NCBI GenBank assembly: GCA_030650425.1
Contig: JAUSED010000005.1
Location: 78,932-142,931 of the forward strand
Reading direction: 5' to 3'
Length of the DNA stretch: 64,000 nucleotides
DNA from: Candidatus Omnitrophota bacterium
Lineage (GTDB): Bacteria > Omnitrophota > Gorgyraeia > Gygaellales > Profunditerraquicolaceae
Part shown: positions 3 through 63,998 of the stretch, piece by piece
How the letters are laid out: the number at the start of each line of letters is the position of its first letter
Position numbering within the stretch: the first letter of the stretch is position 1
Notes under the pieces: model-generated
Seen by the model: only the letters and a program-made list of their open reading frames with translations
The model's database searches: none
Told to the model about the DNA's origin: nothing
Translations under genes and position numbers: made by a program

Positions 3-290
3 GTAAAGGATGATGGCAAAGGGATTAACAAGGAGAAGATTATTAAGCGCGCGGAAGAGTTGGGATTCATCAAAAAAGGCCAAAGGCTTAGCGAGCAGCA
101 AATCCTTAACTTAATATTTCTGCCTGAGGTAAGCGAAGCAAAAGACAGCCGGGAAGGAACGGGAATAGGCTTGGCTACTATTAAGAAGAGCATTGAGGCT
201 GTATGCGGCCAGATAAACGTAAAGAGTAAGACAGGGCAAGGAACCCAATTTAGCTTTAGCCTGCCTTGCGGAGTAGAGCCAGATAAGCTG
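3..290 (+). other. C-terminal part of a histidine-kinase-type ATPase (HATPase_c/GHKL) domain
   Basis: The translation ...DDGKGI...EGTGIGLATIKKSIEAVCGQINVKSKTGQGTQFSFSLP matches the G1/G2 boxes and the C-terminal sheet of sensor kinase ATPase domains. Confidence 0.55.
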
Positions 291-48200: not shown

Positions 48201-51200
48201 ATATCAGAAATGACTATTTCTAATTACCTGCGCAGGATTCAGGCATTATTGCAGTTAGAAAAAAAGCCGCTCATTAAGATAGAACTAAAAATAAAGAGAA
48301 GGACAATAGCGGATCAGATAGAGGAATGGGCTTTAAATAGGGAGCCCAGCCAAAAACTCAAAGAATGGGGAATAAAAGAATTAGCTGCCTTGTTTGGAAA
48401 AACTCCCCACAGCATAAGGCAGGCGCTTCCCGCGATTAATAAAAGATTAACTGAACGAAACGAAGAGGAAGTAAGAGCAAATAAAAAAGAAGAGTCAGCT
48501 GAAGGCTATAAAAAAATAGCCCCAGCAGATGGCTTAGAGTTGTTTATACGAGAGGTTTTTAGGAAGATGGGTAAAGATGAGCAGCGGGTCTTTAATTACG
48601 ACTTTGAGGGTGGTAATGATATATTTAAGGGAACAGGATTAACCCTGAAGCGAGTTGAGTCATTAATAAGAAGCAGTGTTGTCAAGATTTGTAATGCGTT
48701 TGGAACGCAAGACGAAAAGGCAGCTTATGAAAGATATCTGGATTTCAAGAAGCAATTGAATGCAAGCCACAATAAAGAAAGCTTAATAGAAGAATTTAGG
48801 GTTGGTGAGAGCGTTGAGAAAGAGGCAGAGGAAAGAGATGTAGATGATTCTGAAGCATATTCTCAGGTTCAAGATAATTCCATTGATGTAGAGAACCAAG
48901 AGGCCGCCAAGCATATAAAACGCCCATCCTCCTCGCCGATTCATAACAGTGAGCAAAACCCAGAGGAAGGCTTAAGGCGGATCTCTGGAAAGGCAGAGTT
49001 TACAGAAAAGATAAAACCATATCTTGAGGTGGGGGCAATGTATATTTTGTTTATAGCGGCTTGGATAGTTTTTGGCATTATAGGAAAAGTGCTGGATATT
49101 ATTAAGCCGTTTCTATCTAAGTTAATAGGATTCTTACAGCAAAAAACTTCAAGCAGAAGGAAAGATTCTAAGATACATAAACATATGGGAAAAGGGGATA
49201 TTTCTAAGTTAGGGAAAGAAAATGGTGCCGCTTCGCCGCTGACGCGAAATATAGAAAGAGCCAACGCAATATTTAACAGAGTTCTTGAGGCAGCCAGTAG
49301 GAATTCAAAAAGAAAGTATGCTATTAAGCTCTTCATTAAAGAAATAGACGCATACGGTAGGGCTTCTTTAAGCGGCAATTATATTACAATAAATCCAAAC
49401 CAGTTAGGTAATCCAGATTTTGAATTAGCTAAATTAATGGGCCATGAGATTACCCATATAACCTTGGGGCATATTTGGATTGTACGCATTGGATTCAGGG
49501 TCACAACCGCATTATTTTCAATCCTGTTTGCCGCAATGATAAGCGGGATTATTACTGAATTTGACGCGCTTCTTATTGCCGTGGTATTTTTAGGTACGGT
49601 GTTGATGTGTTACTTGGTTACTCAAAGCGAAGCCGATAAGAAAGGTAAGCAATATGCGATATTAGCCGGATTTGGAAATGATACAAAACCTTCGGCTTCT
49701 AAAAAAGCCAGTCATTCCGGCTCGCCGGTAGAAATCATTAGATATGATGAAGTCGATAAGAATGGGGTATTATTTAACCGTTTTCGGTTAATCTATGGAA
49801 CTAATAACCAGCCGCAAAAGCGAATTGTAGAGGTAAGGCAAAAAGGTTTTGAGCCGGTATCTATGTTGAATTATACCTCGCGTAAGATTCACGATACATT
49901 CCCATATGCAGCTGAAGGGCTCTCTCAAGAATTTAGCTGGCATGGCGAAAAAATGCTGGGTGATATGCCGCATACTACCACTCAAAGCGCGCTGTTAGCT
50001 TTAGAGAGGATTAATATTACAGGGAAAACCGTGATTGACGCTGGAACCGGTGATGGAGTATTAGCTATTATGATGGCAAAGCAAAAAAGTGAAGTTAAAG
50101 CTGCGGATTTTCCTTGGATGTTAGAGTTAGCCAAGGAGAACGCAAGATTAAATGGCGTCTATGATTCTATAGAATTTATCGCAGCTACTTTTCAAGATTT
50201 TGGACGAAATTACACAGGGCCGGTAGATATTTTGGTAACTAACATTGGGCGCATGGGAAGTTATCAGAGATACGAGTCTCTATCTAATTTATTCAAGCGA
50301 GCGCAAATTATTATTTTGGCCGGCAGTGAAATGAGGCCTTATGCTCCGTATGCGGATGTTAATCATCCATTTCATCCCTACGACGGGTATCCCTTCTTTA
50401 AAGGAGATAAGTTTATTCCTCTACTCAAAGTAATAGTCAGAACAAAATATTCAAGCGCTGAATGGGCGGCATTGGTTCTTGCCGCCGCCTCGCCGGTCAG
50501 TCAGTTAAATCAGAAAGGCTTAAATTGGAAAGAATTTTTAGGCAGGGTAAAAGAAGCGCGGGTGATTTTGGTAAAAAATGATCTTCATTCTCCCTCAGGC
50601 GAAGCTCCTTGGATATTATCACCAACTGAGCAAGATAAAAAGGTATTCGCAGGAAATTACAACAAAGTTACAGAATTATTAAGGAACCTTCGTATCCTCG
50701 AAGCCCTTGAATTAGATACACCGGATCCGCACAACGATGTATTAGATGATGAAGGGTTTTTAAAGCTGATTGGGGCATTTATGGCTGGCGCCTCTAGCCC
50801 ATTGCGAAACAAACCCGCCGCCTCGGCCGCAGGTATTCCTAATAAAATAATAACCAGAAAGAGATTCGAAGATTGCCTAAGAATAAAGAATTGGGTTAAT
50901 CTTAAAGGCGGGTATAAGAAAGTTTGGTATCCGGGTTCCGGTTCTGATGTGGCGTTGGCCCTGTATGCTACTAATGGAGATGAATTTACCCTTACAAATT
51001 ATACACTCTTTGGAGAAGCGGATGATTTTAGCAACTTTGAGGGTTGGGAGAGGGAATATCATTATCATTTAAGATGCACCCACAGTTGGCTTAGCGTTAA
51101 TTACTATAGATGGAATAGTATAAGCGCGCAGATTTTCTCTGAATTAGAAGCGATAGGGGTAAATTTTGATGATGTATTAAAGACAAGGATTAATCCTGCG

Positions 51201-54200
51201 AGATTTAGACTGGAATTTGATTGGCAGCATCCTTCTGAGAAGATAGCCAAAACAAGGATTATTGACTATATAACTCCGGGCTGCGACTTTTATACTCCGG
51301 AAAACAAGGCAGATATCATAATTATCAAGGCGTTAGATCAATTTCACATTAACCCGCAGGACATGCTTTCTTTCTTAAATCAAAATGGATTTATAGTTAG
51401 CGATATTTATCTGGAGATCCTAGGAATCAGGCCCGTTGCCTTGAAGCTCAGCCATAAATTTGGATACGCCCATAACTTGCCATTCGGAGAATTAGTTGGA
51501 TTAACTACGGGTACGGATGTATTTTTATACAGGAAAATTTCCGCAGCCACTATTTTTAATGGCCCCTCGCGGATAAGTTCACCTATTAATCGCCAAGGGC
51601 AGGCCCCTCAAGATGAAGGCCTTAATAAACAGATTGAGGCGTTAATCAAGATAGTAGGGACAGGGGACGTCAGGGCATCTATTAAGTTATTCGAGATAGC
51701 AGAAGCAGGAAATTTAGGCCGTGGCTTTGTTACTGAGATTTTTGCCCTTCTGAAAGACGAACGTAGGTCTGCGCGAACCGATGCCGCGGTAGTGCTGCAG
51801 GTTGCAGCCTGCAAAGACATTGAAACAATGCTTGAACTTATTGAGCGGACAATAAATGACGAATCGTTAGCGGATGAACGCTACGATACGCATGGCCGTA
51901 TGACTTGGCCTCAGCGCCTTACCGTAAACATCATTAATGAAAGAAAAGGCCAATACATTTTGGAATCTTTAGAATCATTAAGAGGTAATTCTTTACAAAA
52001 GGATATGGTTATAGATTTTATCTTGGATTATGGCAAGTATATAAACGGCTTCTTTAACTTTGCGATCTTGCTCCTCGATAATAAATTATTAAATGATAAA
52101 CAAATCAACAAGATTATCTATGATGTATTTGGCGCGCCTGTTTCACTAAGTAGAATTCGTAAGGCAGCCATTTTTAGTCAACCTCAAGAAATTCTTCCGA
52201 AAGAATTAGGCCTAAAGATACAGACAGATTCTAAAGTAATTATCCTGTCCGGATGCAATTATCCGTTACTAAGGACAGAGGCTCTGATAGAGGATTTAAG
52301 ACACACATACCACTTCGACAGCCGGGTTTCATTTACGGAATGGCCCGTAGAGGAAACGCCCTTTGGCTACGCATTGGATGCCTATAACTTTTTGAAAGAG
52401 CGCTCTCAAGAAATACCTTCGCTTGGAAAGATGCTGAGAGCGATGGAAAGTCGCTCAGGAGAGATTATCGAGGCTTATAAAGAGGAGCTTTATAAGCCAT
52501 ATCCGAATTGGTATTATCTATTAAAAGAGCTCAATGAGATTATGCATCAGGTCCCTTATGACGCAAAATTACTTTTAGGCATCCTTGATTCTTATGCGAG
52601 AGAGATTTTCCATGAAGCTAATTGGATTAAAACATCGCAAGAGAGCATTCCCGGCACCTATATTATATCTTTATATGGAGGGTTATCTGCGCATGACACA
52701 CCTTGGATTTGCGCGGGAGAGGATTTATCAAGCCTTTTAGGCCGGATATTAAAGGAAAATCAGATTGATTGGCGCGCGGAAGAAGACAAGAGCTTAGCAG
52801 GCCTTAGAAACTATGCATACATTGTATTGCCGCTTTCATTAGTAGGCAGCGGTAACGAGGATTTACTGAAGGCCATAATCGGCATATACTTTTTACCAGA
52901 GATCGGTTCTCTTCGCAAGCCAATGCATTCGCTAAACTTAGAGTATGTGATTTCCCACACTGATTCCTCCAGAAGATTTAGCATCGATTTAAAGAAAATC
53001 ATAGATTCTTTACTAAGTACCTTTCCCAAGAACCTTTCTTCGCCGATTACTCTTGCCTGCGGTAAACCGTTGCAGCTAAATCCCGCCGCCTCGCCGCTGG
53101 CTGATAAAAAAAATCAAGATGAATTCAGGATGTTTGAATTTATGGATTTGTTAAGCCAGGATTTAAATCAACATTCCGCTGAGTTAGAGAAAAATAGCCC
53201 TAAGGTTGCGGTGTTTTGTTCTGCCAGGATTAATTCCGGAAAATATTGGGAACTGGCAAAGGCCTTAGGGGCTTCGCTAGAATCTTCCGGTTATACTATA
53301 ATTACCGGAGCTGGCCCGGGTTTGATGGAGGCGGTTGGCGAGGGCGCAGGCCAAACTATTGGGCTGAATATTAATATGCCGAATAAACAAATTCCTAATT
53401 TTTACGTAAAGGAGTGTTTAGAATTTCACAATTTCTCAATAAGAAAGGCTATATTTATCAAATACGCTGATGCCTTTGTAATCATTCCCGGAGGATTAGG
53501 AACTTTAGATGAGCTTCTTGAGGCCTTAACCTTAAAAGACAGGGGATATATCGATGCCCCAATCATTTTATTAGATAAAGGATTTTATTCAGGTTTATTT
53601 GAATTTCTAGAGGGAGTCGAACAGGCTGGTTTTTTGAGAAAGCCCCTTAAAGAATTATGCGTCCTTGTTGATTCTGTAGATGAAGTTTTGCGATATCTTA
53701 AACTAAATAAGGCGCCTCTCAAGCAGGGGAAAAATAATATAGATATTAAACAGGTTTTGGATAATCTCAAGGAGTCATTGGCCGAACTGCAAGGCATAGA
53801 ATCAGCGGTTGGTATTCTGGGCTCGCATTCGTTTGGGAAAGACTCTTCCTCTTATAGGCAGGCATATAATTTAGCCAGGGGTTTTTCCAGAGGTGGCAGA
53901 AAAATACTTTATAGGGGCTGTCAGGGGATTACCGAAGCAGTTGACAAGGCCATTGAAGCAGAAAAAGGCGTGGGTATATCTTTTTGGGTCCCGGATTATG
54001 AAAAAATTCAGCCGGTTATAGGTAAACGATTGGTTTCTCTGCACAGGTTCGCGCAGAAGATTCTTTTGATAACGCATAGCAGGCTTGGGCTTATTTTCTT
54101 TGCCGGAGGAATTGGCACGCTCGATATATTATCCGATGCTTTATGTTTGATTCAAAATAAAAAGATACAGGCAATGCCTATTGTATTAGTGAATAGAGAG

Positions 54201-57200
54201 TTTTGGCAGCCTTTGGTTAGCTGGCTGGAAACTATTTTGAAATCAGGGGCAATATCCAAGGAGGATATTGAATTAGTTAATCTTGTTAGTACAAATGAAG
54301 AGATAATGAAGATTATCGCCGCATCTTCGGTTTTAGGCGAGCAAGCGCGGGATTCGAGCGAATATCGTTTAAGTTCGCCTGTGAACGAATCCTGCGTAGG
54401 CCAACCCTTAGACAGACCCTCTCAAATTAGTAATGTAGACACTTTACACAACTCATCGCCTGTCAAGCAATTAGGAAAGAAAATGCTTCTGCGGTTAGAT
54501 ACCGATAAAAAGTATTCGAGCTCTCCGGCAATAATAGAAGAGATAGCCGCGGCAATTACAGATTCGCTCAAGCTGACTGATTACTCTGGTTCGCCGTTGT
54601 TCTCCTATACTTTCTGTTTCCCTGCCACAATACGTGGCGGAAGCTCGTCTATGTCCGTTTCACCTGTAACTTATGTAGCCTTGGTGGTTTTATATTCATC
54701 TACCTCGTTTTTGATAACAGAAGGAGCAGGATTATTAGTAAACCAGCTTTTTCTAATTCCGCAAATTATTTGCGCTCCGCCAATAGTAAAATATGCAACT
54801 AAGCCCGTTTCCTCGCCGGTAGGGGCTGTTGGCTTCAGCTCGCCGGTGGAAAAAACAGTTGGAGCGACGGTGGTGACGCGAGGCGCCGCCTCGCCGCTTG
54901 GTGAATGGTCAAGTGATAATCTTAGGCAGCAACTTAAGCAGATTGAAGGGAATGTTTTGAATTTGCTGAAGAAATATTCTTTGCCAGAGTTTACGGATAT
55001 TGTTTTACATCCTGTCGCGTATCGTTCTTTAATCACGTGGTTAAACGCAGTCATCAAAAGCCGTGAAGATATACAAGATTTCAAAAAAATGCTGCAGAGA
55101 ATGGAAAAAGACTTTCTGGGGAGTATTTCCGGATTTGTTGCTATAATTTCTCCTGAAGAAAGAAAATCTTTAGTAGAATCTTTAGAATCCTTTAAGCGGA
55201 AGGCAAACGATAAGTTAAATGGTTTTATTACTGAAGCAAGAGAGCTGTATGGAAGGTTTTTGAAGTTGACGCAGCGGGATTTAGAAAATCGTTTTCCGGG
55301 AGAAACTACTCTTATTCTCTTACGGATAATGAGGACAGAGCCTATTAACCGTGAGTGGAATAGGGTTAGGGAAAATGAACATTTCACTTTAGATCCGTAT
55401 CATGGCTATACAAAATTAGACTGGAGAGTGATTATTGTTGCGCAAGTGCCTTTCGGGAGAATCAAAACAACCCCATGGGTATTGGAATCAAGTAAGACTG
55501 AAGAAGAATTTATTGTTTCCGGAGGCCTTCTAAACGTTGTCCAAACCTTTGATAAAAAAGATAAATGGATTAAGTGGAGAGAAGCAAACAAGGATTATTT
55601 TTATGCCAAGCTAAACTCGGCTTCTTCGCCAATCCTAGAAAATAATCAAAGTCTTCTCGTAGCTGGACGAAGTCCTATCAAATTTATTGGCTTAAGCTTG
55701 CCTGTGGAGGGAAAGCTTAAAGAGGTTTTCCTCTATGATAAGCTAGAAGAGAAACTGGTGCCGGTAGAGGCCAAAATCCTTGATACTCAGGACCCTGAAT
55801 TCAACGGTTTTCAGGATGCTGTAAGGGAGTGGTTAGCCTATTCTAGGGATGGTTATGCTATTGATAAAGCTAAAGACCCTCTAACCGGAGAAATTATTAC
55901 TATTCCTCATATCCGTCCTCTTGCCAGCCAAATTATCCAGAATGGAATCACTACTAAAGAGCACTTTATCGTTTTTAAGACAGCCGAGCAGGGAATTATT
56001 GCCTTTGTTCGCCTAAAGTTAAGGCCGCGCAGTATCCTTGGTGCCGGGTTTATTGTTTCTCCGGTTATCCGGCAAGTTAAACGTTACGATACGGAAACTC
56101 TCTTAATGGCCGTGATTCAGTCAATCATCGAATTTAGCCTTCAACAATTGGGCAGGGTAAGGGTGTGGGCGGATCCAGCTAACCGAAAGATGCTGGATTA
56201 TATTTTGCTATTTGGGCCGATAAGAAGACAAGGAAAATTCCTGGTAACGGACGAGGCCGCGCGAAGAATTCTGTGGTACATCCGTAAAAAGATGGCAGAT
56301 TATACCGCAACTTTAGCTGAGCCGGAAGAGAAAAAGTTGGATGGTTCTATTTCCGGCGCCTCCTCGCCGCTGGATTTAACGGTTGGCTTAAGTATTATCA
56401 TCTCCTATGCCTTATTAGTTCCGGTATTTGATTTATACCTGCGTAGGACTATTCAGCGTAAGACCATAGAAGAATTTAAGAAATTCCCATATCCTGTTTG
56501 GATTATGACATTCGCTTTTCTATTATTAGCATGGAAATTCCCGCCGTTGCACAATATTATTTTTTACCTCACCGCATTTTGTCCCGGCATTTTCCTTTCT
56601 TTGATAACGACACTTTCTTTGGCGACTATTTTTAGCCACCGAAAGACCAAGAAAATCATTATACCTTATTATTTATTGCGGGAAGAAGTGAATTATATGT
56701 GGAGACTATATGTCGTTAATATGAAGATTATTGAAGCCGTTGATATCTTTTTCTCAGCTGTGGCAGTCGCCTTCTTTAGTTATTATACCCATGCAACAGC
56801 TTATTTCATACTAGTAATGCTTCTAAAAAGAGCCGGAGTTCTATATCTAGCCCGAGGGCTCACTAAGGAATTTTCTTTAGAGCTTGAAGAGAGATACGAT
56901 GGGGGCAGGGACTTTATAAAAAAGTTTATCACAACAGAGCAGTTATTAGGAACAGATATTGCGCTTAGAGCAAAGGGGGAGCATAAGATAAGCTATAATT
57001 GCCCGCGGCCAATAGCTTTTGCGTTTAGTTATAAAGGATTAGTTCTGTATTTAGAGGAACCGTATCTTGCTTATTATTTATACCCTTGGTTTATGCCTGT
57101 AGTCAGAGTGATTCAAGAGATCTCCGGCTGGAGAAAGGCAAGAGACCGCGCGAAAGATTCTCTTCCGCAAAGCGAAGCAGCTTGCGGCGGATTAATTCCG

Positions 57201-60200
57201 CAGCGTATTGAGTATAGAGATGGGGCCGCCTTGCCGCCGGGATCGCATATCGTCGTCTACGAGGAGAATGGGAATGTAGACGTTGTATATAGCCCATTGT
57301 TTAACAAAGGGTTACAAAACAAATCTTTAGGATATCAAGATGGCCCCGCCGCCGGCACTGAGCCTAATCGAAGCGCCTCGCCGGTTTCAGGAGAGACAGA
57401 ATTATCTTCGGCTTCCGCATGCCTTAGCCCCGCTAAATCCCGCGATAGCCCTAAGGGGAATAAATTCTTAACCTTAACTTCTGCTTTTCTTATTTTTCTT
57501 ACCTCCTTCCATCTTTACCTTAGTCCTTTGCGGGCCTATGCTAACCTTAAGGTTAATCTAAGCGTAATCACGCCCCAAGCGTCACAAGAGCGCCAAGAAA
57601 CCGAAGAGCTTTATAATCAGGCAAGCAGGCATCTAAAGAATCAAAAATACCAAGAAGCGCTGGATCTGTATATAAAGTTAATTAAGCTAGCGCCCAATTA
57701 TATAGATGCCTACATTGACAGGGCCTATCTTTATATCCACCTTGCTCAAGAAGCAAAACAAACAGGTAAAGATACAAAAGGCCTTAGGAAGAACAGAGAC
57801 AATGCAATGTTGGATTTAAAGAAGGCTGAGGCGCTTACTTTAAAGGCCATAAAAGAGAAATACTTTACTAAAGAAGAAGGCAATTTGGTATTTGCCTCAA
57901 TCTATAATCACTACGGATTATTTTATTATCACCTTGAAGGTGATTACAAGAAAGCAGTTAGTTATTTTGAGCAGGCCATAGGCTTAGAGCCGGATAACCC
58001 GATAAATCATAATGATTTAGGGGGAGCCTATTTTAAGTTAGGTAAATACGGCCTTGCCGAAGAGGCATATACTAAGGCAATTGATAAAGCAAAAGCCGCC
58101 AAAGACAATTACGCGGGTTCCCGCATTTACGCAAACCGCGCATTCTTAAGGTTTAAACTCGATAGATATAAGGCGGCAAAGCAAGACATACAGGAAGCCA
58201 CTAGTTTAAATCCCAATTTAAAGAATGATAATAATATCCAAAATTTATTAAAGGAGATTGAATTGAAACTTCAAGAGCGAGAAGGGGTTATTGATTTGTC
58301 TTATCTAAAACTCAATAACTCCAATATCCTTCAGCAGGCTTCCTCGCCGGTTTCGGAGAATAGAAGGGGACAGTTCTATCGTAACTGTTCATCGGCTATG
58401 GAGATAGACAGAGACGGTCTGGAGGATTCTAAGGAAGCGCTTATCGCGCCTTTGCAACATCCCTTAGGCAGGCATTTATATATAGGTACTGATGAGGAGC
58501 GAGACTTATCTAAATGCAGGCAATTGTTATTTGCAGCTTGTCTTGAACTTAGGATATGGAAGAAGCGATATTATTTTGAGCAAGTTGAAAACAGGATATG
58601 CAAGGATCCTTCGTTTCGGACAAAAATAGGCCTTATTGTCTTATTGCGCGATATCCTGCTTAATTATGACGCTTCTAACGTAACGGTTGCTTTTGTAGAC
58701 AGGCTTGAGGGTATTCCGGAAGAACTGATATCGTTCCTTTTAGATGACGAGATCTTATCAGCTTATTTGAATTATCAAGATGAACTTCGAAAATATAAAT
58801 ACATGGATGATAGGGCTATCGAAACTGGCTTTTTCCCATTTTATTATCTATGGTCAGCGTATAAACGCGGGGAAATGCGTGATGCCAAAGAACTCAAAGA
58901 GAGAGTTGTTAGCATCCTTAAGGGTTTTGGCTATGATAAAGCATTCTTCAAGCTCCTAAATGACTTAGCGCATAAGAAAAAGGCGGATTTTAGCCTTGAT
59001 AGCGGCGCAGACGAATTGCGGGTTTTCTTTAGGGCCTTATCCCGTAAAGATATCGTTGAGATTTTTAGACAGACCTTATCAACTCAGATTCTGCCTTCTG
59101 TTAAAAGGCATAGAGCTTCATCTGTAATACAAGGTACCGCCTCGCCGCTGAAGGAAATTGGATCAGAAACCCAAAGAGAAGCAGCCAGGGGAATGATGGT
59201 CATTGAATTGCCCGTGGATGCCGACTTGGGCGAGATCATAAATCACAAAATTGTATATGTTAAGAATGACGGGAATATTAGCACGATTAATGAAGGAAAT
59301 ACAATTAAACTACTACATCCTGATGGGCTAGAATGGAATCTTAGCTGCAAGGTAAGGGATTATCTAAGAGCTACATTTAGCTTAGATTACTCTCTCCTAG
59401 GATTAAAACCTCATCCCTCAACACTTGGAGCGATATGGGCAATGGAAAGGTATCCTACCAATAATCAGCAAGTCCTTGACGCGGGTTGCGGTGAAGGGGT
59501 TTTCACGATTTTGGCGGCTAATTTAGGAGCGAGTAAGGTTATAGGCGTTGATTTAAAAGATTTCATTATTGGACTCGCAAGAAGAAATGCTGAATTAAAT
59601 CGCTTAACTCATATTATTGAATATCACAAACAGGATTTCACAAAACCGTTACAACTATCTGTAAATAACATCAAGTTTGACAAGATCATAACTAATATAC
59701 CCTGTGGTTATACTTATATGGTTCCATCTTTATTGAGGCTTTATCCGGAAGTCAAAACCTTTATTTGGGCAGGTGATTACGTTCATCAAGAAGGCCGCGA
59801 GTATATCGTGGAGGGATCAGAAGAATATATTAGGGAGATTCAGGCATTAGGATTTCGATTCGTAGAAAAATTGATTATTCCTCAAAGAGGTTTGTTTTAT
59901 CCAGAAATTATTATTTGGAAGTGGGTGACATATATCTTAAAGCGGGAAATTAACGAAGCAGGCGCCGCCTCGCCGCTGGGGAAAAATGATCAAAATATCC
60001 TTATCCCTGAAATTATTTCTGAAGCTATTGCAGAAGAAGTTCAAAGAATGCCGGCTTGGGAACTTTTATCTGTTTTAGATCTCAAAAAGGCCAAGCTACT
60101 TTTTACTAAAAGCGGTCCTAGAGAGCTTACTGTCCACAAGATTAAAGTGCCAAAGCTTGTAAATAAGTATAAAGCGCCAGAGGGTTTAAGTATTCTGCCG

Positions 60201-63200
60201 TATGAACTTTTTGATACGACAGAATTTGAACTTTTATACAATAAAAAAGGATACCTTATCGCGATTTATCCGGTTCTCCCAAACGGATTCCTGATTAAAT
60301 CTGGCGAACGACTCCCTCACTATTTTGATTTTAGTGAATATTATTTTAAAATTCCGGAATTCGGTGATCCGAAAATGATTGAAAAATGGGATGCCTTCGT
60401 AAAGGATGTCGGCAGAGATCGGGAAGCAATACAGGCTTATGAGGATTTAATCGGGATAAAGGGTAAGCTTGAAAGGCGCCCGCGTTGGGTACCTTACATC
60501 TACGCAAATCTTGATTATCGGGATAATTTTCCATTTGCTCGGGCTTTTTACATTGAGATGTTTAGCCGTTTGATTAAAAAAGATGAAATCTCGAATAAAA
60601 TCTCTAGAGACATAATCCGGTCTATTCTTCCTGTTTTTCCGACTGTTTACCATCCGGGATCCCATTTATTGGATGATTGGAAATACATTTTAGCTGTTAC
60701 CAGGCGTCTTGATATCCAAAAAGACCATGATATTTTGGTTGTTGGCCCGGGGAATGGCCTTGACACTTGGTTTGTTTCTCGGCAAACAAGGCGGAAAATT
60801 TATGTTGCGGGAATTAATCCTTTGGAAGTTGCCAATACCAGGGCTGTCGCAAAAATTGCCGGGTTTAAGATAGAAGCCAGGATTTACGACAACATTATTT
60901 CTAAAGACGGCGTGACTGTCTTTAATAAGAGATTTGATCGGATTATCTGGAATATGCCCACATATTATCCGGTTGCCCCTAGAATCCGGGAAAGCCTTGA
61001 AGAATGGGAAGATAATGATTACGACGGTATGATCTTAAGGCGTTTTGCCGGAGGCCTTCCATTACTTCTTAAACCAAATGGAATTGCTTTGGTTTGGAAT
61101 TCCGCTGCCGGAAAACTTTTAGATGAGGTTGAAGAAATCTTAAAAGCAAGAGGAGCGCTAGATGTGGCAGTCGAAAAATACCCGGGTATGACGTATTTAG
61201 CCAATATCGAAATGGGCACGGAAACCATTCCTACCGCGCTTTACTTTATCCGCAAGGGAAAAAATCCGGATGCAGCAAGCGCCTATTGTGTCAGTTCGCC
61301 GCTGAAAGAAATAGTTGGAGCGACGGTGGTGACGCGAGGCGCCGCCTCGCCGGTTTCGGGGGGAATATTCCTAACTATATTATGGCCTAAAGACGGTAAT
61401 ATCTTTAATGCGCTCAAAATCTCTGTCATTAGTAGCGATATTCCTAATCTTGCGGATTCTCATAAGAGCAAGATTGAGGGCATCGTTTGTCAACAAGCCG
61501 GATTGCTTAATGATCAATTGGGCAGTATCAAAGACACTTTCATTCAGCGGCCATATCTTGATGTTCAGTTTAGGGATACTATTTATGGCTATATGACACT
61601 TACTGAGTTCTTTGGTTATTTGCGGATGGGATTTAAGGTAGGAGACAGCTTTATGGGAGGATATATTGTAGATTTCTATGGTTTCGGCAATCATAAGACG
61701 ATGCAGAAGCTCAGCGACTACAATAACAGAAGTATAAGCAATTATTTCTTTTTGCTCGCAGCGCTGAAGAAAATTGGTGGCGTTATCATTGATGCCCAGA
61801 AAGTGGTATATAAATATATTGGAGTCAACGAAGATTTTTTTACCGGATTTGACTTTGGCGAGCATCTAATTATTCAAAGGGCTAAAGTTAGGGGATTCAG
61901 CAAGTATCTTAGCAATGCCGCGTTTAATATGTATGATAGCGCGAGTAACTTCAGTGGTGGTTTTAGGCAACTCAAACCTTATTTCTATCCTCTGATGTTC
62001 GGCAAGGGGAACCTTGGAGAGCGGGCGAATGACCCCTCGTTCATAAATTCCCAGTATAGTCTTAGTCATATTTTTTCTCCTTCTAAAAAAGTATACCACG
62101 CTCTTAACGGGGTTGTCAAGAATATTAGTCTTGCCGCCTCGCCGATAAGGATCTCTCCATTTCTCAGTGACATATTTAGAATGTTTCATATGTTTGAGGT
62201 AAATGAATCTATTTTAAGCGAAGACGGGAAAGAGGCGCAGCAGTGGGTTAAGAAAATCATTGGCACAATGCAGAGGCCCCCTGTCGGCCTTATTACAAAT
62301 AATAATGCAGAAAAGCTCATAGCGCTTATGCCTAATCCACGGAAAATATCTCTCGGTGGTTGGTTTGATCTTAGCAGCCTCAATTTTGGAAGCGATGATG
62401 AATTTGGCTTTGGTTGTTTAAGGCCTTGCCCGCATTGTTCAGAAGGGAATACAAGAGCGCGGGTAACAAATCGCACGCTGCCGCCTGCAATAAAGCTTAT
62501 TGAAGAGATGCGCAAGGAAGGCCAGCAAGATACGTTAAGAGGCCTGAAAACTTATCCCGGAAGGTTTCTGATCCAAGGGTGGAATAACACCGACCTTTTC
62601 TATTGGTGTGATCCTTTCTTTAGAGTCTATTTAGACGGCCTTATTGAATTTATCGCGCGTCATTACAAAGATAGAAAATTCCGCCTGCGGATAGCCACAA
62701 TCGGCCCAAACATAGATGACTGGCGCGCATTTATCGTAGCAAAGAGTATTGACAATCTGGTGCTTCAATATCCTGAGTTAAGAAATAATATATTTAGTCT
62801 ATCCTTGCATTTGGCCTTATTTAGCACCAGAGGGTTTGATTATAATACTATCTCTGCTTTGTATGAGCGCAAGATAAATCCACAGCGGCTGGCTAAGGTT
62901 ATAGATAACTATGTGGCCCGCTACGCAGCTATTATTGGCGTTCTCAAGAATACGCTAAGAACGGTCAAAGTATTTCTGTCAAATGAAAGCAGTGAATTTG
63001 ACTCTCTTACGCTTACTGTATTAGATAGGGTCTTAGAGAGGGTCAATATCAGTGGTGGCTTAAAACAGAAGATTATTGATGGAGTAGCTGCAAGAGAACT
63101 AAACAGTGATGTAATGACCCCGTACGGCTTTACTGTAAAAAGCGCTAACATTACGCCATCCGGCCACCGGGGGTTTGATTTTGTAATTGGGTTATTCAAG

Positions 63201-63998
63201 CTTGCAGGCAGATGGAAAGAAGCTGAACGTTACAAGAGGGCTCAAGCAGTAATGAACTTCGCTCCATACCGCAGTAATTATGTCCCAGAAGATGGGTACC
63301 CTCAAACCATAATTTTACCGGGAGAAAGAATTATTGTTCAAAACGAGAAAAGAGAAATGTTTAAATTACCTCTGCAACAACTCGATCCTGATGCTGAATT
63401 TCTTGCCCGCTACGGACTACCTGACAAAAAATCTATAACTAAATATTTATCTTCAAGCCCATTGGCCGAAGTCGCCGCCTCGCCGGTGATAAACAGGCAA
63501 TCCATAACTTATGAAGAATTTGCCGATGATAAACTAGTCAGATTATTACAAAGCGCATCAGAAGAAGAAGTATGGGAGGGCATAATTCAATCCTTAGAAA
63601 AGCCAAGTCTCACTAAGAAAGAGGTGTCGGTAATTTTTGAGAATATTGTAAAGATATGTTATATGGAATATGGATATTACAGGTTCTCCGGTTTTTACTC
63701 TAAGGAGAAATTCCGCGAATTTTTTAAGAGGCTATTAGCATTTAAAGAGGAAATAACCGAAAGGATATTTGTAAATGAAGAAATTAAAATTCTATTCAGG
63801 AAAAGAATTGAAATTCTGAACAAAGTTTTAGATCTATCTGCGGCCGTTCCTTATGAGGTAATTCACTACCAAAGAGAGGATAGGATCATTCCTAAAGACA
63901 CCGATGGTTATTCTTTACCTTTAGCATTTTTAAGAATAATAGCTTTGACTATTTACGATACGTTGAAGGTTAATTTGACAAATAAGGTGGTTGCTATG
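3..63998 (+). CDS. Giant uninterrupted ORF, partial at both ends (21,332 codons in window), encoding a multi-module signalling/regulatory mega-protein
   Basis: The frame with codon starts divisible by 3 has no stop codon in the window. The ORF track lists ATG-to-stop ORFs in the other five frames but none in this one, as expected if it is never closed. Recognisable protein motifs occur in this frame from the first to the last kb, and the terminal 2 nt are left over as expected. The true gene is therefore longer than 64 kb. Confidence 0.85.
3030..3500 (+). other. Degenerate HD-like domain (RelA-type, HD dyad replaced by HK)
   Basis: ETYFHHALAAAKTL...AAFLHKL aligns to EPYIxHPLxVA...ALLHDV of RSH hydrolase domains but lacks the Asp of the HD dyad. 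It lies immediately upstream of the synthetase domain. Confidence 0.3.
3675..4060 (+). other. RelA/SpoT-type (p)ppGpp synthetase (nucleotidyltransferase) domain
   Basis: SRVKSAYGMFEKI...FEALKDILGTHIIS...KGYEAIHIDVEI...PYEIVIFS matches RPKHIYSIYRKM...FDVRAVRIV...GYQSIHTVV...VEVQIRT of RelA/SpoT synthetase domains. Confidence 0.55.
5607..6030 (+). other. HD domain of the SpoT/Mesh1 (p)ppGpp-hydrolase type with an intact HD dyad
   Basis: YELARQIHRGKKRDNGEPYLMHPIAVV...ALIDHDVFEE...LMKMADKLHSLKT matches AHxGQxRxSGEPYIxHPLxVA...LLHDVVED...KLADRLHNMRT. Confidence 0.65.
7311..7410 (+). mobile_element. MITE/REP-like nested palindromic element inserted in frame (copy 1)
   Basis: A perfect 11-bp inverted repeat gtcattgcgag (7329-7339) / ctcgcaatgac (7390-7400) encloses a perfect 27-nt palindrome, cgaagcaatctcg a cgagattgcttcg (7352-7378). 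The encoded peptide is R/C-rich (PIVSLRANEVSEAISTRLLRRCAPRND), unlike the flanking protein. A related copy lies 0.8 kb downstream. Confidence 0.55.
8114..8222 (+). mobile_element. MITE/REP-like nested palindromic element inserted in frame (copy 2, about 70% similar to copy 1)
   Basis: Outer perfect 11-bp terminal inverted repeat gttgcgaaatg (8114-8124) / catttcgcaac (8212-8222). Inner repeats cgtcatcctgag (8133-8144) / ctcagaatgacg (8190-8201) and cgaaggatctcg (8150-8161) / cgagattcttcg (8169-8180). Same architecture as copy 1: GTCAT..GAGCGAAGCGAAG.AATCTCG...CGAGATT.TTCG...CTCAGAATGAC. The encoded peptide is FRHPERSEGSRYRRDSSAFGLRMTQ. Confidence 0.55.
10970..11340 (+). other. Domain of unknown function, copy A of an internally duplicated module
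   Basis: PKLSLGLPMVIKSFHNLDEIRYLQEMAGNFELQFCVVSPKRTPYPLLIFSKEL...RFVPFA is clearly homologous to 31540-31870 (LELGLLMATKPFLNLREVRNIQELAGDFELQFTVIFPKGARHPLVVFSREL...RFVPFA). Both copies are followed by HTH domains. Confidence 0.5.
11440..11620 (+). other. LuxR/GerE-type HTH DNA-binding domain
   Basis: TDRELEIWRLWAKGVDREAIGKALNEGERFIKRVISKIITKFNISKRGQIAHF matches the LuxR C-terminal pattern LTxRExEVLxLxAxGxSNKEIAxxL.ISxxTVKxHxxNIxxKLxVxNRxxA. Confidence 0.5.
11925..12060 (+). other. Second LuxR-type HTH
   Basis: LSEREKKILWLFIAGYNPKAIALTLSLPEGILLSDILFAMKQKL. Confidence 0.4.
16560..17440 (+). other. TPR repeat tract followed by a TM helix (17455-17520)
   Basis: Repeated motifs such as W..LG..YY..GD...A...Y..A and A.Y.LG.I.F.QGK.DEA; then LPMLFVGLVLFIIAGISAG. 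Confidence 0.5.
18703..18747 (+). repeat. 17-bp near-perfect inverted repeat (hairpin) within coding sequence
   Basis: ggacacaatccttaatt (18703-18719) is complementary to aattaagtattgtgtcc (18731-18747) with one mismatch. It is followed by the tandem cctggaattc ctggaattc. Confidence 0.5.
18785..19150 (+). other. CheD-like (chemoreceptor glutamine deamidase family) domain
   Basis: GGRFVGCTACLFWDNNAGIHGFLHLFP resembles the CheD signature LGSCVAVCLYD...GGMNHFMLP. Confidence 0.3.
20100..20400 (+). other. Possible GNAT acetyltransferase fold
   Basis: IQEESLYGKGYVNEILFWI resembles the acetyl-CoA-binding motif A (Q/RxxGxG/A). Similar weak GNAT-like segments occur at 18200-18500 and 38390-38770 (RHNGYGIKIFRTAIKAL). 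Confidence 0.25.
20545..21040 (+). other. GGDEF diguanylate cyclase domain (GGEEF active-site motif)
   Basis: DLLTGAYNRRYLDE...[26 protein letters not shown]...FRYGGEEFCVI...VTVSIGV...ADQALYKAKENGRNRV contains all the GGDEF hallmarks. Confidence 0.8.
22290..22830 (+). other. Protein-kinase-like fold (atypical)
   Basis: FADSKPENVIIHH resembles the catalytic loop HRDLKPENILL, and the downstream IDMDN sits in the DFG position as in atypical or aminoglycoside-type kinases. Confidence 0.3.
24780..25240 (+). other. TPR repeat tract
   Basis: LNDFGAICLDQGRYSLARILFEVGL...HFQLGYVSYLLGEFNLAFAYFQTAKRLG...LGDFDNALKEFQEMMQAG. Confidence 0.5.
27500..27620 (+). other. HExxH zinc-metallopeptidase-like motif (HEYVH at 27526-27540)
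   Basis: VVRIIIHEYVHYYSFYSP...AEVFAETIVEMIY. This is a minimal gluzincin/ImmA-like signature, weak on its own. Confidence 0.25.
29220..29960 (+). other. Sigma-70 family module (region 2 and region 4-like)
   Basis: GLIKKIIASYKVT...LEDAAIFGAKIAALKYHPERGVKFMTFAWNVIKHEI matches region 2 (LVxSIAKRY...[37 protein letters not shown]). The C-terminal segment ...DQFGFSIVAKQRGIKRQTVTKAYYLVLATLR resembles region 4. Confidence 0.55.
30229..30480 (+). other. Low-molecular-weight phosphotyrosine phosphatase/ArsC-like domain (CxGNxxRS P-loop)
   Basis: GGIKVVFLCNGNRWRSAAMYLW matches the LMW-PTP P-loop V(L/C)FVCxGNxCRS. Confidence 0.4.
31540..31870 (+). other. Domain of unknown function, copy B of the duplicated module (see 10970-11340)
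   Basis: See copy A. It is followed immediately by the XRE HTH array. Confidence 0.5.
31995..33105 (+). repeat. Tandem array of about seven XRE/Cro-C1-type HTH units (about 160 nt each), two of them near-duplicate
   Basis: Units such as LRQIREKMGLSQKELVNRLGFLNLSAITFYEIGTVKMPLDFLNRI. LLQELRESLGYTPAKLAKVIGYTEVDILHWENAEAWIPSGVLRDIRKRVMPERLRQIREKM (32150-32340) is paralogous to LLKALREFLGYRAEKLARELGKGYTEEGILRWEEGKEWIPRGVLKEIRERLIPLRLRQIRKEV (32640-32810). Confidence 0.6.
33645..34200 (+). repeat. Three tandem repeats (about 60 aa / 185 nt each) of an uncharacterised W...GFL.W..AVKA.G..P motif
   Basis: WPLELFLSQLKTASKILGTNSSTAFLRKYRKIRRAFLFLREKGFLSDWNSAVKATGGQPAFR / WTKEIFLKQLKNAIKESGTSASWVIKDKYRKIYRAYLLYGIEWGFLNWASAVKACGAKPHLR / IIKTRKIFLYRLRQVFADLGTTSSREIKKRYPQLFISFIFCQEEWGYLDWSSAVRKTGNQPIS. 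Confidence 0.6.
35330..35900 (+). other. TPR repeat tract
   Basis: AEQLLNDGQYAEAIKLFKQVV...AKAYFISGKEHYLRGNYRRAINYFRKVLDV. Confidence 0.45.
36040..36700 (+). other. Second sigma-70-like module (region 2-like plus region 4-like HTH) ending at a junction motif
   Basis: HLWLVKLAAIRYL resembles LRLVVSIAKRYL, and FQGLSMEFITRRTELNEKEINQYLKQGGQEIQSL is an r4-like HTH. It is paralogous to 33370-33560 (LALNHEDMDNIIRLTGLTQEEIDRHLIEGGEKIQKISGL). Both end in xSSPV / SASPV. Confidence 0.35.
38865..38876 (+). repeat. Junction motif GCCGCCTCGCCG, exact copy, in phase (AASP)
   Basis: Exact 12-mer. Context PAASPVLGK. Confidence 0.9.
40960..41530 (+). other. Cluster of about 5-6 predicted transmembrane helices
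   Basis: Long hydrophobic runs such as WLSIFPAALFWAGYYLF, VIILASIALIGLTTIVF, IVGTTAVMRAIMVGSRTFLFSGIYFFSMIIFSALCSVFIL and FLVFMGAFFISDIVAMF. Further TM clusters lie at about 15440-15540, 19350-19500, 19770-19850, 38960-39070, 49020-49130, 49490-49620, 54640-54790, 56370-56860 and 57460-57540. Confidence 0.5.
41823..41834 (+). repeat. Junction motif GCCGCCTCGCCG, exact copy, in phase
   Basis: Context PAASPLAEE. Confidence 0.9.
43565..44400 (+). other. Radical SAM core domain (CX3CX2C plus GGEP)
   Basis: IITSKCNLQCAPCIAQ gives CNLQCAPC = CX3CX2C, and FVGGEPSLYG is the SAM-binding GGE motif downstream. Confidence 0.5.
46283..46980 (+). other. Calcineurin-like (PPP-family) metallophosphoesterase fold, partly degenerate metal ligands
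   Basis: VLVIPDIHCQY...IQIGDVISRGPE...RLLGSHELL...VVHAGV follows the DxH(x)nGDxxDRG(x)nGNHE pattern, with D to S in GDxxD and N to S in GNHE. Confidence 0.45.
48150..48440 (+). other. Two helix-turn-helix motifs
   Basis: WESQRRLAEEIGISEMTISNYLRRI and LKEWGIKELAALFGKTPHSIRQALPAINKRL. Confidence 0.4.
49310..49660 (+). other. M48/HtpX-like membrane zinc metallopeptidase module (HEITH at 49444-49458) with flanking TM helices
   Basis: GNYITINPNQLGNPDFELAKLMGHEITHITLGH resembles the M48 core (...ITvttGLL..L..dELegVlaHElgHi). Hydrophobic helices lie both upstream (49020-49130) and downstream (49490-49620). Confidence 0.45.
49990..50300 (+). other. Class I SAM-dependent methyltransferase fold
   Basis: GKTVIDAGTGDGVLAIMMAK (motif I, VLDxGxGxG), ...VDILVTNIG. 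Confidence 0.45.
50484..50495 (+). repeat. Junction motif GCCGCCTCGCCG, exact copy, in phase
   Basis: Context AAASPVSQ. Confidence 0.9.
53085..53096 (+). repeat. Junction motif GCCGCCTCGCCG, exact copy, in phase
   Basis: Context PAASPLAD. Confidence 0.9.
53205..53650 (+). other. LOG-family (lysine-decarboxylase-like / nucleotide phosphoribohydrolase) domain
   Basis: VAVFCSAR...YTIITGAGPGLMEAVGEGA...KADAFVIIPGGLGTLDELLEALTL...PIILLD matches the LOG signatures GGGxGLMGA and PGGxGTxEEL. Confidence 0.65.
53800..54290 (+). other. Second LOG/DprA-like Rossmann domain, more diverged
   Basis: AVGILGSHSF...ILYRGCQGITEAVDKA...LIFFAGGIGTLDILSDALCL...PIVLVN. Confidence 0.35.
54857..54896 (+). repeat. 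40-nt perfect direct repeat, copy 1 (contains a junction motif; encodes VGATVVTRGAASP)
   Basis: agttggagcgacggtggtgacgcgaggcgccgcctcgccg is identical to 61313-61352 and in the same codon phase. The flanks match for about 8 more nt with 2 mismatches. Confidence 0.9.
56370..56860 (+). other. Cluster of about 6 predicted transmembrane helices
   Basis: LSIIISYALLVPVF, VWIMTFAFLLLAW, IIFYLTAFCPGIFLSLITTLSLATIF, VDIFFSAVAVAFFSYY and AYFILVMLL. Confidence 0.45.
57580..58240 (+). other. TPR repeat tract (about 6 repeats)
   Basis: ELYNQASRHLKNQKYQEALDLYIKLIKLAPNYIDAYIDRAYLY...GLFYYHLEGDYKKAVSYFEQAIGLEPDNPINHNDLGGAYFKLGKYGLAEEAYTKAI...ANRAFLRFKLDRYKAAKQDIQEATSLNPN. Confidence 0.6.
59440..59730 (+). 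other. Class I SAM-dependent methyltransferase fold
   Basis: QVLDAGCGEGVFTILAANLGASKVIGVD (motif I) ...FDKIITNIP (motif IV-like). Confidence 0.45.
59963..59974 (+). repeat. Junction motif GCCGCCTCGCCG, exact copy but out of phase with the ORF (read as APPRR)
   Basis: 59963 is not divisible by 3. The ORF frame reads ...KQAPPRRWGKMIKISF..., whereas the +1 frame would read EAGAASPLGKNDQNIL before hitting TGA at 60008. Confidence 0.8.
60700..61130 (+). other. Class I SAM-dependent methyltransferase fold
   Basis: HDILVVGPGNGLDTWFVSRQTRRKIYVAGINP...FDRIIWNMPTYYP...LKPNGIALVW. Confidence 0.45.
61313..61352 (+). repeat. 40-nt perfect direct repeat, copy 2 (immediately upstream of the antisense toxin cassette)
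   Basis: Identical to 54857-54896. Confidence 0.9.
61380..61865 (-). CDS. vapC: PIN-domain ribonuclease toxin (VapC-like), encoded antisense within the giant ORF and in codon registry with it
   Basis: The 161-aa translation has the PIN hallmarks IFVDSNIFIYHF (N-terminal Asp), TSVIVVAELLHRL (Glu), LLTNDALNLALM (Asp) and C-terminal IATNDRDFERI (Asp). Its start ATG (61863-61865) abuts the TAG stop of the upstream small ORF. It ends at the TAA complementary to the plus-strand TTA at 61380-61382. Confidence 0.75.
   Translation of the reverse strand: MLAKVKSGKKIFVDSNIFIYHFLGINDNATNFLQRCEQKEIIAYTSVIVVAELLHRLMIAETIEIYNISSHKAVSYLKSHPQITKELSKCHIAINSIPKLNIKIWPLNESVFDTAQLIIKQSGLLTNDALNLALMRIRKIRNIATNDRDFERIKDITVFRP
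61866..62069 (-). CDS. vapB: Antitoxin of the DUF104 type that commonly pairs with PIN toxins; start taken at the internal Met preceded by a Shine-Dalgarno
   Basis: MTKTILGIYERGVIRPLSKVPLAEHQRIEIRFELP... matches the MxxxIxAIYENGVLKPLEPLDLPEGTEVRV antitoxin signature. AAGGAG lies 7 nt upstream of this ATG on the minus strand. The track ORF (61866-62189) extends further 5' but without an SD. Confidence 0.7.
   Translation of the reverse strand: MTKTILGIYERGVIRPLSKVPLAEHQRIEIRFELPKTTTEVTRAIIHIKRGIAKILAESPNFSPLNN
62077..62119 (-). promoter_or_regulatory. Sigma-70-type promoter plus Shine-Dalgarno for the antisense TA operon
   Basis: The minus strand reads TTGACA (62119-62114) - 18 nt - TATACT (62095-62090) - tttttag - AAGGAG (62082-62077) - aaaaaat - ATG (62069-62067). 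Confidence 0.6.
62133..62144 (+). repeat. Junction motif GCCGCCTCGCCG, exact copy, in phase (immediately beyond the antisense cassette promoter)
   Basis: Context LAASPIRI. Confidence 0.9.
62400..63200 (+). other. Second CX3CX2C motif (possible radical-SAM-like module)
   Basis: GFGCLRPCPHCSEG gives CLRPCPHC = CX3CX2C at 62415-62438. The domain extent is uncertain. Confidence 0.3.
63474..63485 (+). repeat. Junction motif GCCGCCTCGCCG, exact copy, in phase
   Basis: Context VAASPVIN. Confidence 0.9.

Follow-up and report, generated by a model that had tools for sequence, protein, structure and literature searches.

The stretch analysed here, 64,000 nt of Candidatus Omnitrophota DNA (contig JAUSED010000005.1, positions 78,932 to 142,931; hereafter the window), is read through on its plus strand by a single giant open reading frame (ORF), and close to its end a toxin–antitoxin (TA) operon lies antisense inside that frame. 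This operon is intact, carries expression signals and is under purifying selection, and the read-through of the host frame across it is conserved. The nested TA genes are the constrained products, and the giant frame across them is only kept open. Overall, we consider it probable that the element is a type II TA operon of the VapBC kind that takes up a complete module between two linkers of an Omnitrophota-type giant gene, and that it acts as an expression-competent addiction cassette adapted to giant ORFs. The coordinates of all features are collected in Table 1.

The nested operon and its expression signals

An earlier note on this DNA had proposed that the minus strand encodes a DUF104 antitoxin followed by a PIN toxin, and homology searches bore out both genes. 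The 161-aa toxin matched the PIN family (PF01850, E = 3.2e-15) over profile positions 1-118 of 120, and the 67-aa antitoxin matched DUF104 (PF01954, E = 1.3e-08) over profile positions 1-46, starting from residue 1. The other elements that the note had listed were found as well. The antitoxin stop codon TAG (61868-61866) directly adjoins the toxin ATG (61865-61863), a Shine-Dalgarno sequence AAGGAG stands 7 nt before the antitoxin ATG, and the TTGACA/TATACT promoter agrees with the consensus at 11 of 12 positions, a match that by itself is no proof of function. The transcript of the operon is predicted to start near 62083 on the minus strand. No gene besides the TA pair was found in the cassette, an Rfam search over 60500-63000 gave nothing above chance, and no intrinsic terminator-like site was found in 61000-62600.

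The acidic active-site residues of the PIN protein (D14, E52, D128 and D149) are invariant in an alignment of 23 sequences, and its standalone full-length relatives are 160-170 aa long and up to 75% identical to it. The AlphaFold model of this protein has a mean predicted local distance difference test score (pLDDT) of 95.9, and its best solved-structure matches in Foldseek were the VapC toxins of VapBC complexes (3zvk, 5ecw and 5wzf). The antitoxin, in turn, matched PDB entry 2nwt (AF_2212; E = 6.6e-05). The combination PIN-COG2880 (DUF104) is listed among predicted TA pairs (Makarova et al. 2009, PMC2701414). These data suggest that the operon is a VapBC-like type II TA system consisting of a PIN toxin and an AF2212-like/COG2880 antitoxin; judged by family membership, the toxin would be neutralised by the antitoxin and the operon autoregulated. 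An exact-sequence look-up of the PIN protein of the window and of protein P0001 returned no record.

The giant host frame

The plus-strand frame starting at nt 3 contains no stop in 21,332 codons and is open at both ends of the window, and the other frames have no open stretch of 250 codons or more. As the earlier note had stated, this frame reads straight through the cassette, and the two strands share their triplet boundaries, position 61380 being the first base of a plus-strand codon. Pfam domains on the giant strand comprise LOG/Lysine_decarbox (E = 5e-49), PrmA-like and other methyltransferases, radical SAM, GNAT, peptidase M48 and TPR; the giant-frame translation opposite the operon matched no Pfam family. 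With at least 21,332 codons, the ORF belongs with the Omnitrophota giant genes, taken as single ORFs of more than 10,000 codons with many unrelated enzyme domains. Among the giant proteins of this phylum a "multi-enzyme metabolic cluster" class has been described (bioRxiv 10.64898/2026.06.07.730766), and the host ORF, tiled with methyltransferase, GNAT, radical SAM and peptidase domains over more than 21,000 codons, resembles these multi-enzyme giant genes. Its nearest database protein is P0045, a partial protein of 1,595 aa from an Omnitrophica metagenome-assembled genome (MAG). The two share a single module (59964-61283, 69% identity), which is bounded in both by SSP-type motifs. On sequence grounds, it is this module, together with the hosts of the related cassettes, that points to Omnitrophota as the source.

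We also examined the antisense side of the giant gene as a whole. The 20 longest antisense open stretches of the window had no Pfam match, and only four antisense ORFs of at least 55 aa carry a Shine-Dalgarno-like motif, the antitoxin gene among them. The TA pair is therefore the only recognisable antisense gene content of the 64 kb.

The operon had further been described as delimited by two junction motifs. Two exact copies of GCCGCCTCGCCG do bracket it, with the noted spacing of 792 nt from start to start (3 x 264), and the operon fills the whole module between them: one motif copy lies 27 nt from the PIN stop, the other 13 nt from the -35 box. However, the motif is a general in-frame linker rather than an attachment site specific to the cassette. 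At no more than one mismatch, 19 copies occur in the window (24627-63485) against 0.17 expected, all of them on the plus strand, in frame and of the "AASP" type, so the position between two copies is not special in itself, unlike the complete filling of the module by the operon and the lack of TTA, CTA and TCA in its genes. This sequence is the most conserved form of a recurring linker of the giant protein, [AS][ASG]SP[VLI]; TCG-CCG encodes 36 of the 133 Ser-Pro dipeptides, although TCG makes up 12% of the Ser codons and CCG 31% of the Pro codons.

Conservation of the nesting in related loci

A scan with the PIN alignment over one genome per species gave four top matches, L083, L084, L085 and L086, two of which are labelled Omnitrophica or Omnitrophota and two are "Planctomycetales" MAGs. 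Each of the four has its PIN gene (53-59% identity) antisense to, and in codon register with, a frame without stops along the whole locus retrieved (15.9, 13.7, 20.5 and 20.5 kb, respectively). The wider range of identities recorded for nested PIN relatives in these Omnitrophota-type genomes is 52-66%. These hosts are real giant genes, as their giant strands carry the Pfam domains GT2, GNAT, UDPGP, AceK, sigma-70 region 4, ELFV dehydrogenase, methyltransferase and peptidase M50. Two short metagenomic contigs of 1.1 kb each, L001 and L164, showed the same nesting and are open over all of their 369 and 354 codons. Among about 150 other relatives, archaeal and bacterial, the median open run in that frame is 49 codons.

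In a neighbour-joining tree, the embedded copies form one clade that is sister to free-standing, mainly archaeal pairs. Counting the window, seven of the eight clade members with DNA available are antisense and in register inside an ORF that is open to the sequence ends, and the nested architecture occurs in seven independent assemblies from different studies, one of them a single-cell genome. No evidence was found for an assembly artefact, which the earlier note had named as a possible refutation, and the same architecture is present in six assemblies besides that of the window.

The organisation of the operon is conserved along with its position. In all six cassettes analysed, an antitoxin gene of 66-68 aa lies directly upstream of the PIN gene in the same frame; the pair was also seen in L165, besides L001, L164 and L083-L086. 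Each of the six has a promoter scoring 9-11 of 12 at 20-41 nt before the ATG, where the background is about one match of at least 10/12 per 5 kb, and each has GGAG or GAGG at the Shine-Dalgarno position. Here a rule-based scan replaced a MAFFT alignment of the six promoter regions, which was uninformative because the spacing varies.

A second nested pair

Another antisense pair, which has promoter-like and Shine-Dalgarno sequences of its own, lies in two of the giant ORFs, those of L083 and L084. Its antitoxin belongs to DUF433 (E = 3e-18 and 4e-20) and its PIN-like toxin to DUF5615 (E = 2e-17 and 2e-13). PIN-COG2442 (DUF433) is likewise a predicted TA pair (Makarova et al. 2009, PMC2701414). 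Of the two genes, the one for DUF433 keeps the codon register of the giant frame, and the one for DUF5615 is offset by a single base, which places it in a feasible phase. This second pair adjoins the AF2212-like/PIN pair in L083, lies about 940 nt away from it in L084 and is absent from the window. The nesting of TA genes is thus limited neither to one family nor strictly to exact register.

Searching with a profile of the giant-frame peptides yielded no more than two short proteins, which are 96-97% identical to L084 and come from contigs with less than 1x coverage. The ENA contigs L166 and L167 (0.8-0.97x) represent L084 strain variants from two other samples and have both nested cassettes at the same place; being nearly identical to L084, they are not independent examples. 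Their giant frame is split into many short ORFs, probably through low-coverage errors, and gene callers had annotated the read-through segment on them as a protein of 213-226 aa.

Stop avoidance and selection on the two strands

Where a nested antisense gene is in register, each TTA, CTA or TCA codon in it is a stop codon of the giant frame. Not one of these three occurs among the 22 Leu and 14 Ser codons of the nested genes of the window (P about 7e-07 under the codon usage of the giant ORF, where TTA, CTA and TCA together account for 5.6% of giant-frame codons and TTA alone for 34% of Leu codons). The count is zero in each of the six analysed cassettes, with P values per copy of 2e-05 to 2e-07 under host codon usage, and the log10 P values of the five cassettes with enough host codons sum to about -29.5. 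This null model assumes that the nested genes would otherwise share the codon usage of their hosts. A comparison with free-standing relatives needs no such assumption: at a G+C content of third codon positions (GC3) of 0.35-0.65, none of 91 relatives was without the forbidden codons even in the PIN gene alone (median 3-6). In the giant frame, Leu or Ser is read where the cassette has its own stops. The next longest antisense run in register in the window spans 127 codons.

Selection was assessed by simple Nei-Gojobori counts of the proportions of nonsynonymous (pN) and synonymous (pS) differences on the codon alignment. The results showed that the TA frame has a saturated pS of 0.71-0.87 and a pN of 0.20-0.33, giving pN/pS ratios of 0.26-0.43. 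Across the cassette, the giant frame has pN/pS ratios of 0.80-1.18 and amino-acid identities of 24-39%. The claim that this stretch is dual-coding therefore stood in part. The frames on both strands are open for longer than chance allows, but purifying selection at the amino-acid level was detected for the product of the TA frame only, which makes the arrangement asymmetric, with one frame constrained in its amino acids and the other kept free of stops.

The saturation of the synonymous sites means that forbidden codons must have appeared again and again and been purged, and we infer from this that the giant gene has to be translated across the cassette. The antisense orientation is explained in the same terms, since the operon's own stops would end the giant protein if it were sense-oriented. 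TTA, CTA and TCA all have synonyms, so the in-register phase places no amino-acid constraint on the toxin or the antitoxin. Of the two alternative phases, the conserved Phe-Ile in the PIN motif rules out one, and the other is largely feasible. The idea that only the in-register phase is possible is accordingly weakened, as the DUF5615 gene uses this third phase.

Flanks of the cassette and its possible movement between hosts

Compared with L083-L086 and L001 (within 10 kb on either side, E < 1e-5), the giant protein of the window is similar only over the cassette; the only other stretch shared among the host loci is the L083-L084 segment antisense to the second cassette. Conservation begins at the -35 box and ends at the PIN stop. 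On either side of this unit lie direct repeats of host sequence that are specific to each host, namely 12 nt in the window, 16 nt in L001, 42 exact nt with diverged flanks in L086 and 117 nt at 91% identity in L085, and their spacings are all multiples of 3. In 20 kb, the repeats of L085 and L086 are present only as the two flanking copies, and [AS][ASG]SP[VLI] motifs do not flank the cassette in L084-L086. The long host duplications around the cassette in L085 and L086 suggest an insertion with target duplication or an integration by single crossover. These observations fit a cassette that has moved between sites while keeping its stop-free recoding.

Three kinds of known element were considered for this unit and rejected. 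An integron gene cassette does not agree with flanks that are direct repeats of host coding sequence and lack an attC-like inverted repeat at the ends. A transposable element resembling an insertion sequence or a miniature inverted-repeat element disagrees with a repeat length that varies from 12 to 117 nt, with the lack of terminal inverted repeats and with the lack of any gene besides the pair. An intein or another in-frame self-removing insertion is at odds with a plus-strand translation that matches no Pfam family and with a giant-frame sequence free of constraint.

A possible mode of action and its alternatives

In the proposed explanation, ribosomes on the giant gene must traverse the cassette, which would explain the purged stops. 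The antitoxin would neutralise the PIN RNase and probably autorepress the promoter. If the cassette were lost, by recombination between the flanking direct repeats or within a larger internal deletion, the PIN toxin would be set free; in this way the cassette would stabilise itself and, whether as a by-product or to some use, also the part of the repeat-rich giant gene around it. The cassette lineage appears to be pre-adapted to the nested position and able to move between giant genes. A broader proposal, which we put forward tentatively and regard as somewhat short of probable, is that Omnitrophota giant genes harbour a whole guild of recoded antisense TA pairs (of at least two families, AF2212-like/PIN and DUF433/DUF5615) that moves between unrelated giant genes and serves as internal addiction modules against deletion, and that the purged codons provide the first evolutionary evidence of continuous translation through function-less segments.

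Several points weigh against the explanation of the element as a VapBC-like addiction cassette. The toxicity, neutralisation and autoregulation attributed to this pair are carried over from its family, the role as an addiction module or stabiliser is drawn by analogy, and the expression of either strand is a prediction from the DNA. The PIN toxin found no match in the PDB by sequence, where the fold search alone was informative; it reaches the NCBIfam VapC models only below their cut-offs, and the antitoxin matched none of them. Moreover, not every copy of the clade is demonstrably inside a giant ORF. In the eighth member, L163 (1.26x coverage), the giant frame stops 178 nt beyond the PIN stop, and this locus may represent a cassette outside a giant ORF, one near the start of such an ORF, or an assembly error. 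The embedded copies share ancestry, so the per-copy probabilities of stop avoidance are not fully independent, which the saturated synonymous sites mitigate; the neighbour-joining tree carries no support values. Finally, neither mobility genes nor terminal inverted repeats were found at the cassette.

The best of the alternatives, which we nevertheless consider unlikely, is that the operon is a domesticated regulator. Here transcription of the giant gene, through occlusion, polymerase collision or sense-antisense pairing, would lower the supply of antitoxin and thereby couple PIN RNase activity to giant-gene expression; conversely, transcription of the cassette could throttle the full-length giant mRNA. 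Such a role would agree with a near-consensus promoter that lies head-on inside a very long transcription unit and is conserved in all copies, and with the same orientation of the second TA family. Collision-type transcriptional interference is reported for other bacteria. However, nothing in the sequence requires a regulatory role, and the antisense orientation is already accounted for by the need to keep the cassette's stops out of the giant frame. A selfish or mobile element also fits better with a cassette that sits in unrelated giant genes.

We give slightly less weight still to the possibility that it is not the making of one continuous protein that keeps the giant frame open. For example, ribosomes kept on the mRNA would avoid Rho-type polarity, or cleavage at the flanking linkers could discard the read-through peptide. 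That peptide is unconstrained and lies exactly between two linker motifs, and post-translational cleavage of Omnitrophota giant proteins has been proposed in the literature, with the cleavage points not specified. But there is no evidence that [AS][ASG]SP[VLI] is a cleavage site, and the cassettes of L084-L086 are not flanked by it. Translation through the cassette would still be required, so this possibility refines rather than replaces the explanation by an addiction cassette.

It is very improbable that the stretch of the giant frame opposite the cassette encodes a functional domain of its own, or that the cassette carries a third, antisense gene, with the frame kept open for that product. 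The giant-frame peptides of different hosts do align at 24-39% identity, with E values down to 1e-51, but this similarity arises because the opposite strand is constrained. A pN/pS of about 1 in the giant frame, against a pN well below pS in the TA frame, argues against a functional product, as do the lack of a Pfam family and the presence of only 8 invariant columns in 233. Finally, a decaying relic whose antisense frame is open by luck, or a chimeric assembly, can practically be dismissed: its sole point in favour is that some genomes do have long antisense frames in codon register, whereas the catalytic residues are intact, the stop-avoidance statistics are extreme, and the architecture recurs in seven independent assemblies and in L084 strain variants from two further samples.

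Comparison with known systems

The operon resembles the VapBC and PIN-COG2880 pairs of archaea in its small upstream antitoxin gene, its abutting stop and start codons and its own promoter and Shine-Dalgarno sequence. It also shares with VapBC the conserved acidic PIN residues and a predicted fold that matches the VapC of solved complexes. It differs from them in that the whole operon is antisense inside another open protein-coding frame and purged of TTA, CTA and TCA. In addition, the toxin is about 160 aa long, compared with about 130 aa for classical VapC, in keeping with its NCBIfam VapC scores below the cut-off.

Chromosomal superintegrons, integrative elements and similar large dispensable arrays are reportedly stabilised by TA cassettes. 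The present case is similar in that a TA pair sits in a long, repeat-punctuated, deletion-prone unit from which direct repeats could excise it, and the presumed logic is alike, with loss being punished. Unlike in superintegrons, the array here is a single translated ORF instead of many separate cassettes in a row, it has no attC sites or integrase, and the strand opposite the cassette has to remain without stops.

Bacteria and viruses are known to contain protein-coding genes that overlap, or are nested, on opposite strands. As in those cases, frames on opposite strands cover the same DNA in a codon-registered relation. The nested genes described here, however, are not young overprinted ORFs; they form a complete operon of an old, widely distributed domain family. 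The overlap comprises about 690 nt of coding sequence for two genes, and the constraint on the two strands is asymmetric. What supports the host frame is that stops are avoided in copies that have diverged deeply.

The nested TA pair also sets the giant gene apart from the Omnitrophota giant genes of two earlier papers (bioRxiv 10.64898/2026.06.07.730766; West-Roberts et al. bioRxiv 10.1101/2023.11.21.568195), where term searches turned up no reference to antisense or nested genes or to TA modules within giant ORFs. Full-text literature searches for nested or antisense TA systems in giant genes gave nothing relevant, a provisional result given their incomplete coverage. Provisionally, then, the arrangement is without prior description in the literature searched.

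If our explanation is correct, bacterial dual coding over a long antisense overlap would here be seen with unusual clarity, with one strand backed by strong homology to a known operon type and the other by stop avoidance across deeply diverged lineages. It would also bear on whether giant genes are read as one unit, since selection against stops in a segment without amino-acid constraint means that ribosomes must pass through that segment. TA systems would gain a new niche, and possibly a role as stabilisers or parasites nested in giant genes. In practical terms, gene callers that forbid long overlaps on opposite strands will miss such operons on long contigs.

Linkers and further features

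Table 1 Features of the window and of related loci (window positions unless a locus is named)
Feature	Position	Strand	Description
Giant ORF	3..63998	+	Multi-enzyme giant protein; sole frame open for at least 250 codons
57-nt "double linker" (SSPLKEIVGATVVTRGAASP)	61296..61352	+	Ends in motif copy 1
Junction/linker motif copy 1, GCCGCCTCGCCG	61341..61352	+	In-frame AASP; left direct repeat, upstream in giant-gene direction
Giant-frame read-through segment	61353..62132	+	260 codons between motif copies; reverse complement of operon
PIN-domain (VapC-like) toxin gene	61380..61865	-	161 aa plus TAA stop (61382-61380); PF01850
AF2212-like (DUF104/COG2880) antitoxin gene	61866..62069	-	67 aa plus TAG stop (61868-61866); PF01954
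Shine-Dalgarno AAGGAG	62077..62082	-	7 nt before antitoxin ATG
Sigma-70-like promoter	62090..62119	-	-35 TTGACA (62119-62114), 18-nt spacer, TG-extended -10 TATACT (62095-62090)
Junction/linker motif copy 2, GCCGCCTCGCCG	62133..62144	+	In-frame AASP; right direct repeat
Predicted giant-frame peptides across cassette borders			GAASPVSGGIFLTILWPK, NISLAASPIR; predicted junction peptide VTRGAASPVSGGIFLTILWPK
L085 direct repeats	9611-9727 and 10514-10630		117 nt, 91%; encode hydrophobic helix and KKILRQEGA
L086 direct repeats	9599-9640 and 10964-11005		42 nt exact, with diverged flanks
DUF433/DUF5615 pair	L083:4257-4848; L084:11426-12017	locus +	Antisense to giant ORF

In L163, a C-terminal fragment of a protein-L-isoaspartate methyltransferase gene (PCMT, pcm) lies on the TA strand directly after the PIN stop (L163:601-898), and this stretch contains three giant-frame stops. 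In the window, an out-of-register antisense frame has 30 open stretches of at least 100 codons, for example 54674-55399 (242 codons), 45413-45940 and 25436-25927. The long stretches of this frame that were tested showed no Pfam match and no Shine-Dalgarno-led start, and they are probably a by-product of the codon composition of the giant gene.

The [AS][ASG]SP[VLI] linkers may mark points of module shuffling or cleavage sites of the giant protein. The double linker has a second copy at 54840-54896, which is 93% identical (4 differences in 57 nt). A GC-rich perfect palindrome, GCGAGGCG-C-CGCCTCGC, at 61334-61350 is formed by the motif and the codons preceding it, and it was found only at the two double-linker copies, the other being at about 54878-54894.

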